A stretch of DNA of 64,000 nucleotides from Naegleria gruberi (Eukaryota). The stretch lies in the NCBI GenBank assembly GCA_000004985.1, contig GG738894.1; one strand, given 5' to 3'. The position numbers and the translations under genes are program-made. The notes under the pieces were generated by a model that saw only the letters and a list, made by a program, of their open reading frames with translations, had not been told where the DNA came from and did not search any database. This document shows positions 8,140 through 9,307 of the stretch, piece after piece (the stretch's first letter is position 1; the number at the start of each line of letters is the position of its first letter).

Positions 8140-9122
8140 GGATAGAGATGGAAATAATATTGTAATAATATTAATCCGTTTAACATGGAATTTTTACATA
8201 AATAAGCACTTTTTGGAATTTTGCTTTGGCTTAATCAATTTCTGTTTAAGAGATTCCAAATATTCCACATCAAGTTCAATAATATTCTTTAACAGTTTTA
8301 AACCCAAATCGGTTCCGCTTAGTAATCTCACACAATCTAAGAATATTTCTTCCACATTTATGTTAAACTTGGCACTTGTCACAGAGGTATTTAACAATTC
8401 ATATTGACTAATCTTGTCATTCACAACTTGTTTAGCTTTCTCAGTAATTTCCCTCTTTTCTTCCTTCTCTTCTTCTGTGAAATCATCAACCTTATTCAAT
8501 GCAAAAATTATTGGAATACTTTTTAATTGTTCGATTCCTCTAACTCGAGCCATGAATTCCATATGATATCCTAAAGAGCAATCATCTATTGAACTAGGAT
8601 CTGTCAGAGAGCAAACAACTACAATACAATTGGAATTACAAAGGCATTGCTCTTTAAATAAATTACTTTCATACTCCTCATGTCCATCTACGAGAACTCC
8701 AAAATTTTGTAAATAATTGTTTTACTTACAGAAATCGAAAATATTAAATAAATATTGATCTCCACCAATTTCCACATATTTTCTGTAATTATCATCAATT
8801 GTTGGGGTGTTGTGTTCAAGGAAATTTCCCTGAATGAATTGAATAATTAGCGAACTTTTACCTAATTATTTCGAATAGGTTTAATTCAATAATAAACTCA
8901 CCAACTCCTCCATCTCCAAGGAGAAGAATCTTAATTTCTTCATCATGATATTCATTTTCATTTCTAGTGATGGGAACTGTACTTAAAAATTGTTTCGTAT
9001 AAAGTGTTAGAATAATCTTTCTTCGGAGATTTCCTATTTCCACCATTTGATTTTTAACTTGATCAAATTCTTCTCTGTTTTTCTCTTTAATTCTAACTTG
9101 ACTTTCGAATAATTTCCACCAA
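8140..9122. repeat. Copy 1 of an exactly duplicated segment. It is identical to 28922..29909 and covers most of the F-box-like/Ras-GTPase gene.
   Basis: The two segments are base-for-base identical over about 0.99 kb on direct reading of both copies. Copy 2 is a short contig bounded by N runs on both sides. Confidence 0.9.
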
Positions 9123-9307
9123 ATATTGTTGAAATATTCTTGCATTTCACAAGATAATGACTTGTTAATGCTTGTGAATGTCATCAGAAATCGAAGATTT
9201 TGCGAATAATTGATGTGTAAATTATTCGGATCAATGATAAATGAGAGAATACACAAGAGAAGTTCAATTGGAAGAGATGAGAACCGAGTTGTTTTTCGTT
9301 TGGCCAT
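8194..9307 (-). CDS. Ras-family small GTPase carrying a C-terminal CAAX box and an N-terminal extension of about 140 aa with an F-box-like motif. It has three exons at 8902..9307, 8730..8861 and 8194..8687.
   Basis: The first ATG is at 9305-9307; the track's upstream start is a TTG. The N-terminus reads SSLPIELLLCILSFI, which is F-box-like. The G1 motif KILLLGDGGVG|KSS is split by a 40-nt GTGAGT intron. The switch-II region reads FDFYGHEEY, equivalent to Ras DTAGQEEY but with His at the Gln61 position. G4 is NKVD, G5 is TSAK, and the C-terminus is QNSKKCLFM (polybasic plus CaaX). Without splicing the exon frames are interrupted by stops. Confidence 0.75.

Follow-up and report, generated by a model that had tools for sequence, protein, structure and literature searches.

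The window analysed here is a 64 000-nt stretch of Naegleria gruberi contig GG738894.1. Its minus strand carries a three-exon gene for a small GTPase of the Ras family, with the start codon ATG at 9307-9305 and the stop codon TAA at 8196-8194. The gene is organized as follows:

8194..9307, minus strand: whole gene, start to stop codon; 3 exons, 343 aa, identical to N. gruberi XP_002672966.1
8902..9307, minus strand: exon 1; aa 1-135 plus 1 nt, covering the N-terminal extension and half of the P-loop, as far as GDGGVG
8862..8901, minus strand: intron 1; 40 nt, GTGAGT..TAG
8730..8861, minus strand: exon 2; P-loop KSS, switch I NTPTIDDNY, strands beta2-beta3 and the first residues of switch II (DF plus 1 nt)
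8688..8729, minus strand: intron 2; 42 nt, GTAAGT..TAG, phase 1, inside the Tyr180 codon (HRas position 59)
8194..8687, minus strand: exon 3; remainder of switch II (YGHEEY), G4 NKVD, G5 TSAK, C-terminal helix, CaaX box and stop codon

The spliced 343-aa product matched XP_002672966.1 (EFC40222.1, D2VSN6_NAEGR) with 100% identity and 100% coverage; the splice model put forward in an earlier, sequence-only reading is thus the public gene model, and Herman et al. (2021; PMC8296547) left that model uncorrected. We regard it as practically certain that the locus is this already annotated N. gruberi gene and a member of the family described below. The NCBI annotation of the protein is ‘ras family small GTPase’. 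The 122-aa product P0006 is merely what an ORF caller makes of exon 3. Read-through of intron 1 would give GVGEFIIELNLFEIIR and then a stop codon; retention of intron 2 would give DFCK and then a stop. Two relatives bear on the age of the introns: P0122 stops at GQGGVG, the counterpart of the end of exon 1, which is consistent with a conserved position of intron 1, and P0013 runs into an intron at the codon matching the intron 2 site (DTG followed across the junction by KFLK), so that the position of intron 2 is probably common to the two genes.

The gene had also been described as the unit duplicated at a scaffold gap, with at least two copies thought possible. An identical sequence does exist in the window:

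28922..29909, minus strand: 988-bp fragment, 100% identical to 8140..9127, with N runs on both sides

Still, the copy is partial. Besides 54 bp of 3′ flanking sequence it takes in the two introns, the whole of exons 2 and 3 and, of exon 1, only the 3′ portion, so that its coding part corresponds to aa 61-343; it fits exactly between the N runs at 28871-28920 and 29910-48943; the case for a second copy comes down to this one N-bounded fragment. The fragment has the size of a Sanger read, is 100% identical introns included, and is bounded by Ns on both sides; for these reasons a true tandem or segmental duplication is less favoured, and the fragment most likely reflects an error of assembly, a small contig having been placed in the scaffold gap.

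The encoded protein can be divided into the following parts:

9098..9283, minus strand: F-box-like region, aa 9-70, with helix H1 LPIELLLCILSFI; from Pfam, hhalign and the AF2 model
8939..9097, minus strand: helical linker, aa 71-123, conserved in the family (..LKRKILL..) in alignments A1 and A2
8320..8938, minus strand: Ras/Rap-like G domain, aa 124-302, with both introns inside; Pfam, PDB and Foldseek matches
8680..8682, minus strand: codon CAT of His182, the residue in the HRas Gln61 column
8209..8319, minus strand: C-terminal helical extension and Lys-rich stretch, aa 303-339, family-specific (..LLKNIIELDVEYLE..) in alignment A1
8197..8208, minus strand: CaaX box CLFM, aa 340-343

Assignment of the G domain to the Ras family held firmly. 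The Pfam Ras profile (PF00071) matched aa 126-301 with 89.8 bits against a cut-off of 21.6 (E=1.8e-25), the best PDB sequence match was Rap1b (E=3.1e-21), and by sequence and fold together the closest solved structures were Rap1b, Ras and M-Ras, not Rab. In Foldseek comparisons of the AF2 model with Rap1b, HRas and KRas the target-normalised TM values were 0.75-0.83 (E from about 1e-12 to 1e-13), in agreement with the Ras fold, a six-stranded sheet with five helices. The motifs G1 (GDGGVGKSS, aa 131-139), switch I (NTPTIDDNY, aa 153-161), switch II (DFYGHEEY, aa 178-185), NKVD (aa 244-247) and TSAK (aa 283-286) were located directly; in alignment with HRas, the G1 pattern GxxxxGK[ST], switch I Thr35, the G3 pattern DxxG, NKxD and SAK are all present. 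The protein shares with HRas, KRas and Rap1b the fold, G1, G4 and G5, Thr35, DxxG, the effector-loop core PTIxDxYRK and, at the C-terminus, Lys-rich sequence ahead of a CaaX box; it differs from them in an extra 123-aa N-terminal extension and a C-terminal helix of ∼40 aa, with identity of ∼30-34%. We rejected the possibility that it is an ordinary Rap1 orthologue, given identity of ∼33%, the additional modules at both termini and three other genes listed as Rap1 by Herman et al.

The presence of His at the position of Ras Gln61 was borne out by alignment, with His182 falling in the HRas Gln61 column. Compared with Ras, Phe-Tyr also replaces Thr58-Ala59 and Asn-Thr replaces Tyr32-Asp33; measured against the family consensus, the departures are Y32N, D33T, E37D, S39N, T58F and A59Y. 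His182 is neither the Gln of Ras nor the Thr of Rap. Rap proteins have Thr61, with an Asn supplied by the GAP, while in translational GTPases of the EF-Tu type a catalytic His, at the Gln61-equivalent position, belongs to a DxxGH motif. On the other side, KRAS Q61H (PDB 6MNX, 6GOG), which has the same His and was among the Foldseek fold matches, is impaired in hydrolysis according to the title of 6MNX. As a His at this position impairs one enzyme and is catalytic in another, the kinetic effect of His182 is not fixed by sequence alone. In the family residue 61 varies freely, Pro being the commonest, followed by Gln, His, Ala, Leu and others, and a ‘constitutively GTP-bound’ state, suggested earlier, does not follow from the sequence.

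At the C-terminus the AF2 model has an unbroken helix over residues 291-330, and six Lys are found among the 13 residues upstream of the CaaX Cys. The CaaX tail noted earlier is indeed there, and a CaaX box ending in Met is kept in most family members. A CaaX box with Met as X predicts farnesylation, and CLFM is therefore a box of the type that predicts farnesylation of this protein.

By an exhaustive HMMER search we found full-length relatives with shared architecture in N. gruberi, N. lovaniensis and Willaertia magna; further relatives are in Table S8 of PMC8296547. The family is restricted to Heterolobosea, and has at least 20 genes in N. gruberi. Its members have a helical N-terminal extension of ∼120 aa before a Ras/Rap-like G domain, and after it a C-terminal helix and a Met-ending CaaX box. 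XP_002672966.1 is a lineage-specific paralogue in this large Naegleria/Willaertia expansion of Ras-derived small GTPases; its closest orthologue has identity of no more than 38%.

Upstream of the G domain, where the sequence-only reading had counted about 140 residues, the extension comprises some 123-125 residues (strand beta1 begins at about aa 122-126). Helix H1 lies at aa 12-24; after an insertion of ∼10 residues it is followed by ..FTSINKSL.. and ..NIWWKLF.., collinear with the F-box elements ‘VcKnf’ and ‘lW’. The AF2 model places helices at 14-24, 36-47 and 53-70, where H1-H3 of an F-box are expected, and two more, at 75-89 and 94-110, in the linker; in the linker (aa 71-123) a Pfam search matched no known domain.

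The F-box claim stood for the family and not for this protein taken alone. In XP_002672966.1 the Pfam F-box-like profile (PF12937) scored 13.5 bits against a gathering cut-off of 24.3 (E=0.06, aa 9-30), covering only positions 1-21 of the 47 in the profile; PF00646 (F-box) gave no match in the Pfam search, and no F-box HMM exceeded its gathering threshold. A Naegleria-specific F-box HMM gave 8.0 bits, a score reached by about 1 in 200 shuffles of the same protein. The F-box signal of the individual protein is thus marginal. At the level of the family the picture is different. The family N-terminal profile compared by hhalign with Naegleria F-boxes (nine Pfam-verified targets) gave a probability of 88-92%, E of about 1e-6 and a score of 33.9; the reversed alignment scored 12.7, and none of 40 column shuffles scored more than 14.1. 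With default settings and 11 sequences, hhalign gave statistical support for helix 1 only. Matches to F-box-like profiles at E≤1 were seen in 8 of 15 family members. Willaertia P0015 came just below the threshold of PF12937 (23.8 bits; GA 24.3), N. gruberi P0021 was at the threshold of F-box-like_2 (PF13013; 21.7 bits, GA 21.6), and two members outscored all 3800 decoys with the Naegleria-specific HMM. XP_002668120, a paralogue without the insertion, aligned to positions 2-36 of the F-box-like profile with canonical spacing. Judged by these profile comparisons, the family N-terminal domain is homologous to genuine F-boxes, with a signal that clearly exceeds background, and the extension looks like one that begins with a degenerate, insertion-bearing F-box. 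Fold searches recovered no F-box, and the family profile (A2) found nothing significant among PDB sequences; the F-box protein Legionella AnkB ranked second there with E=0.49, a rank only suggestive of F-box ancestry.

The combination of an F-box with a Ras-like G domain had been thought unusual. In fact the F-box is the commonest accessory domain on Ras-superfamily GTPases of Naegleria, where fusions with Rab, Rho, Ran and Gα domains have been reported, including prenylated Rac-like ones, and clear F-boxes occur on dozens of GTPases (PMC8296547). Herman et al. catalogued XP_002672966.1 as plain ‘Ras’; their screen with SMART, Pfam and CDD marked none of the N. gruberi Ras rows as having an additional domain, and in Table S8 the F-box label is absent from this protein and from all N. 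gruberi ‘Ras’ rows (PMC8296547). What is new here, a small increment on an already published class of architecture, is that the Ras subgroup, too, appears to bear a degenerate F-box. The published fusions share with this protein the organism, an F-box N-terminal to a Ras-superfamily G domain and lineage-specific expansion with pseudogenes, and several Rac-like ones (XP_002671699, XP_002676320) also end in CaaX (PMC8296547). They differ in that their G domains are Rab-like, Rho/Rac, Ran or Gα and their F-boxes pass Pfam, whereas in XP_002672966.1 and its relatives the F-box is degenerate, with an insertion between H1 and H2.

Among other systems, TbFRP of Euglenozoa (FYVE-F-box-GTPase; PMC3593210) is likewise a protein of Discoba uniting an F-box with a small-GTPase domain. 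We rejected orthology with it: a Pfam search at E≤10 found no FYVE domain in XP_002672966.1, the G domain is Ras-like rather than Rab18-like, and the authors of the TbFRP study found no N. gruberi orthologue (PMC3593210). Most likely the two fusions arose independently of each other. RhoBTB, present in Naegleria (PMC8296547), joins a small-GTPase domain to a cullin-adaptor module and is therefore a functional analogue; it differs in using BTB/Cul3 instead of F-box/Skp1-Cul1, in its G domain, which is of Rho and not of Ras type, and in domain order. FBXL2, FBXO10, Legionella AnkB and yeast Rcy1p combine an F-box with a C-terminal CaaX box as membrane-anchored SCF receptors; their substrate-binding parts, however, are LRR, ANK or other repeats, with no GTPase domain.

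These comparisons outline a possible mechanism. The protein would be farnesylated and located on a membrane. Its G domain would be expected to bind guanine nucleotide, as G1, Thr35, Asp57, Gly60, NKxD and SAK are intact; the switch regions, His182 included, would no longer support Gln61 catalysis of the Ras type, so that hydrolysis would be slow or reliant on a partner supplying the catalytic group. The F-box-derived module would connect the G domain to Skp1/SCF. The protein could then be a nucleotide-gated, membrane-bound substrate receptor, in line with the idea of ‘GTPase-dependent ubiquitination’ proposed for the Naegleria F-box-GTPase fusions by Herman et al. 2021 (PMC8296547). Alternatively, the module could govern turnover of the protein itself, as proposed for TbFRP, whose F-box was suggested to tie the GTPase to rapid turnover (PMC3593210). 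We hold this reading as a whole, that of a membrane-bound farnesylated GTPase linked to Skp1/SCF through an F-box-derived module, tentatively, giving it slightly less than an even chance.

A competing account, which we consider less probable though deserving serious weight, is that the N-terminal extension descends from an F-box but has lost Skp1 binding and now serves as a helical domain peculiar to the family, working inside the protein or its dimers (e.g. in switch masking or scaffolding). On this view ubiquitination would play no part, and the protein would simply be a divergent Ras-like switch that is farnesylated. This account agrees with the sub-threshold Pfam scores of all members but P0021 (several having no match at all), the variable insertions of 10-60 residues between H1 and H2, replacement of the canonical Trp of the ‘VcKrW’ element (SINKSL), the outcome of the fold searches, and two further conserved helices without F-box counterpart. 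It is harder to reconcile with the conservation pattern. In known F-boxes LPxE(I/L)xxxIL is the core Skp1-contacting helix. Yet no other segment of the extension is as well conserved as this motif in the three genera, which suggests selection on that surface; the many clear F-boxes on other GTPases of the same organism also speak for Skp1 binding.

The unusual switch regions admit two further explanations. XP_002672966.1 might be a decaying copy or a ‘pseudo-GTPase’ of a birth-and-death family, with His182, Phe179/Tyr180 and the altered switch I reflecting relaxed constraint rather than a locked-on design. The family does include annotated pseudogenes and members with a destroyed DxxG, and Table S8 has a single entry for the gene, on the N. 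gruberi sheet, which means that no N. fowleri orthologue was assigned (PMC8296547). Departures from consensus at functional positions, together with the lack of an orthologue above 38% identity, mean that the paralogue could be drifting. We think this unlikely: the ORF is intact over three exons with canonical GT..AG introns; G1, Thr35, Asp57, Gly60, NKVD, SAK, the LPxE motif and CaaX are all kept; and Table S8 carries no pseudogene flag for the gene (PMC8296547). Far less probable still is that DFYGH is an artefact of the gene model. Intron 2 splits the Tyr180 codon, and the choice of splice site therefore sets the residues around positions 59-61. However, the donor GTAAGT and the acceptor TAG are canonical, intron retention leads to the stop noted above, the identical public model was left as it stood by curators, and the matching codon of a relative is also interrupted by an intron. 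Inspection by eye turned up a single further in-frame acceptor for intron 2 (ending in TTGGAG), which was rejected; its use would give DFFLVDGHEEY, with DxxG lost and His kept. His182 is independent of the junction because it lies two codons inside exon 3.

The Skp1/SCF reading could be carried further. The whole Ras subgroup of Heterolobosea might consist of farnesylated SCF receptors in which the Ras-like G domain binds substrate, so that ubiquitination at the membrane would be nucleotide-gated; the loss of Gln61 across the family might mean that resetting of the switch is left to a partner acting in trans, or to degradation, and not to intrinsic hydrolysis, with DFYGH in this protein acting like DxxGH. 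We offer this extension as a speculation that is unlikely to hold in full.

The practical weight of the finding is that of a refined catalogue entry for a non-model amoeba; the gene is annotated, its class of architecture is published and no long-standing question is opened. If the degenerate F-box is functional, Ras would be added to Rab, Rho, Ran and Gα as a GTPase family of Naegleria connected with SCF ubiquitin ligases, and N. gruberi would have more candidate GTPase-dependent E3 receptors. The family would then also provide a natural series of residues at position 61 (Pro, His, Ala, Gln) on one scaffold for studies of hydrolysis without Gln.

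The AT-rich window (33.7% G+C) carries the GTPase gene as three exons:

9307, minus strand: start ATG
9307..8902, minus strand: exon 1
8861..8730, minus strand: exon 2
8687..8194, minus strand: exon 3
Two introns of 40 and 42 nt, minus strand: canonical donors GTGAGT/GTAAGT, acceptors TAG

The spliced product of 343 aa was identical (100%, full length) to XP_002672966.1 / EFC40222.1 / D2VSN6_NAEGR, annotated publicly as "ras family small GTPase [Naegleria gruberi]"; the window is thus part of an N. gruberi scaffold, and the splice model proposed in the sequence-only reading is the public gene model. 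The motifs listed in that reading all lie where it had placed them, while the extension preceding the G domain comprises ~123-125 residues rather than ~140. In the GTPase catalogue of Herman et al. 2021 (PMC8296547, Table S8) the protein has class 'Ras', with an uncorrected model and without pseudogene mark, additional domain or orthologue beyond Heterolobosea; as the entry appears on the N. gruberi sheet only, no N. fowleri orthologue is assigned to it.

Pfam Ras covers residues 126-301 (E=1.8e-25), and among solved sequences Rap1b comes nearest (3e-21), ahead of Ras and M-Ras. An AlphaFold2 model, built with a 15-sequence family alignment as input (mean pLDDT 70.9), superposed on Rap1b, HRas and KRas with target-normalised TM ~0.8 at 27-34% identity. 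Residues were compared in an alignment with HRas and with a canonical Ras that Table S8 lists for N. gruberi. Intact with respect to HRas are G1 (GDGGVGKS, including Gly12 and Gly13), Thr35, Asp57, Gly60, NKVD and SAK; the protein has Asn-Thr at 32-33, Phe-Tyr at 58-59 and His at the Gln61 column.

The Gln61-to-His substitution is therefore real. The codon of this residue, His182, is located two codons into exon 3 and so does not depend on the splice choice at intron 2; the one other in-frame acceptor that inspection by eye turned up for that intron loses DxxG and retains His. Among 23 aligned family members the column holds Pro in seven, Gln in three, His in three, Ala in two and one-off residues in the rest. 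Several members lack DxxG altogether. Besides XP_002672966.1, His is present in an N. lovaniensis relative (P0014, ETSEHDD) and in XP_002680941 (KLYTHDEY); the closest relatives have DTAGPEE, and paralogue XP_002673837, with DTYGQEEY, shares Tyr59. Given this variation, His is one of several residues at a position that varies freely within the subfamily, where Gln61 has mostly been given up; the change is no unique event. Rap works with Thr61 plus an Asn supplied by its GAP, and in translational GTPases the His of a DxxGH motif is catalytic. KRAS Q61H impairs hydrolysis (title of PDB 6MNX). A GTP-locked state, which had been raised as a possibility, does not follow from the sequence.

A word-indexed protein search produced weak relatives only; HMMER, run exhaustively over 1.84 billion representatives, detected proteins matching from the N-terminus through CaaX:

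N. gruberi: XP_002668509, XP_002673033 (37-38% identity), XP_002674532, XP_002671663
Other sources: two proteins of N. lovaniensis, three of Willaertia magna, a few environmental ORFs

The family alignment has four conserved modules: LPxE(I/L)xxxILx(Y/F), a variable insertion and QSINKxF....FNxFWWxxL; a helical linker with LKRKILL; the G domain; and a C-terminal helix (LLKxxIExD) with KKCxxM behind it. Many further corrected N. gruberi sequences in Table S8 have the same layout, and by our own count the species has at least 20 members. Truncated calls of three family members among environmental ENA ORFs, P0013, P0023 and P0122, stop or run off at the P-loop (GQGGVG) or within switch II (DTG|KFLK, DTAG|KFSY). 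Since the calls break exactly there, both intron positions seem to be conserved in paralogues and uncultured relatives.

Is the N-terminus an F-box? Taken singly, XP_002672966.1 gives weak evidence: Pfam F-box-like matched helix 1 only (E=0.06, 13.5 bits against a cut-off of 24.3), and an HMM from nine Naegleria F-boxes scored 8.0 bits, equalled by ~1 in 200 of the protein's own shuffles. The evidence at family level is considerably better. F-box-like matches at E<=1 were seen in 8 of 15 members; Willaertia member P0015 reached 23.8 bits (cut-off 24.3), with a PF00646 match too, N. gruberi member P0021 reached 21.7 bits for F-box-like_2 (cut-off 21.6), and the insertion-less paralogue XP_002668120 aligned, in canonical spacing, to positions 2-36 of the F-box-like profile. 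As an independent reference we took nine segments from Naegleria Rab-like GTPases (Table S8), all nine passing Pfam F-box, and compared their profile with the family N-terminal profile by hhalign. The probability was 92% (E=5.8e-7) with 11 family sequences and 88% with 19 (score 33.9, running from H1 to the "SINKxF ~ VCKNF" element); controls gave 12.7 for the reversed alignment and at most 14.1 in 40 column shuffles. Relaxing the alignment threshold gave a match that stayed collinear up to and including the "lW" element; the insertion then fell between H1 and H2. On our reading of these profiles, the extension is a degenerate, interrupted F-box derivative.

The gene was also said to be duplicated at the scaffold gap, where the window has two N runs:

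28871..28920: N run, 50 bases
29910..48943: N run, 19,034 bases

Between these runs there is no sequence other than 28922..29909, which matches 8140..9127 at 100% identity and has the same orientation. This partial, 988-bp copy starts one base past the shorter run, stops at the longer one and covers exons 2 and 3 with both introns, a part of exon 1 and, on the 3' side, 54 bp of flanking sequence. With a length close to that of a Sanger read, identical introns and isolation between gaps, it is more simply explained as a small contig placed in the gap than taken as proof of a second gene, though a real recent duplicate is conceivable. A 6476-aa 'ORF' listed across the 19,034-base gap is meaningless.

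Directly upstream of the gene, ORFs 9453..11375 (minus strand, 640 aa) and 11760..13106 (minus strand, 448 aa) had no Pfam match at E<=0.001. Directly downstream, the product of 7010..8080 (minus strand) resembles Pre-SET/SET histone methyltransferases (SET E=3.5e-23), and its first 38 residues have a sub-threshold F-box-like match on LLILFFSQYCEAFVLYNCARVCSRWRKII (E=6.5e-4, 19.9 bits with a cut-off of 24.3); the N-terminus of this model may be incomplete, and the F-box, if true, would make another Naegleria-style fusion. Another signalling protein nearby, a 1066-aa ORF (18418..21615, minus strand), combines ankyrin repeats and RGS (Ank_2 E=4.9e-30; RGS E=1.3e-7). A 476-aa ORF (21930..23357, plus strand) with BTB (E=1e-22) and BACK (2e-15) is likely a Cul3 adaptor, ~13 kb from the GTPase gene. 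Other features were:

3707..4627, plus strand: ORF with sub-threshold RWP-RK match (26.6 bits against 29.3)
14413..15348, plus strand: mitochondrial carrier protein (E=1.3e-57)
26920..27924, minus strand: DUF4116-repeat protein (E=1.2e-31)

The architecture had been considered unusual; for N. gruberi it is not unusual, since F-box-GTPase fusions and prenylated F-box proteins are already known. Among the additional domains of Naegleria Ras-superfamily GTPases the F-box is the commonest; it was found alongside Rab, Rho, Ran and Galpha domains and is N-terminal in three divergent Rab-like clades, one with CaaX; "GTPase-dependent ubiquitination" was suggested as a regulatory mode (Herman et al. 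2021, PMC8296547). Table S8 there includes Rac-like proteins with F-box and CaaX together, and the F-box label is on none of its N. gruberi Ras rows. In Euglenozoa, the sister lineage, TbFRP is a similar fusion (FYVE, F-box and Rab18-like GTPase), whose authors did not find a Naegleria orthologue (PMC3593210). Prenylated F-box proteins elsewhere include FBXL2, FBXO10, Legionella AnkB and Rcy1p. Overall, the observation is confirmed and its earlier interpretation supported in part.

How the protein works can be considered with several explanations in mind. A gene-model artefact is very improbable for a product identical to the public model, which Table S8 leaves uncorrected, with intron positions that seem conserved. 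That this particular paralogue is a drifting or pseudo-GTPase copy is rather unlikely; XP_002672966.1 retains its nucleotide-binding motifs and probably binds guanine nucleotide. It is possible, with somewhat greater probability, that the F-box-derived helix is a relic re-used as an internal regulatory domain; alternatively, the same helix would recruit Skp1/SCF. We tentatively favor the SCF-linked explanation, at slightly less than even chances.

The sole increment over published data is that the Ras-type subgroup including XP_002672966.1 appears, from profile comparison, to carry a cryptic F-box too. The protein probably carries a farnesyl group on Cys340 (X = Met), and the Lys-rich stretch would help to hold it on a membrane; as Ras-type Gln61 catalysis would be absent, its off-rate would depend on a partner or on turnover. 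If Skp1/SCF is recruited, the G domain could bind substrates as a nucleotide-gated module; alternatively, the protein could be marked for its own degradation.
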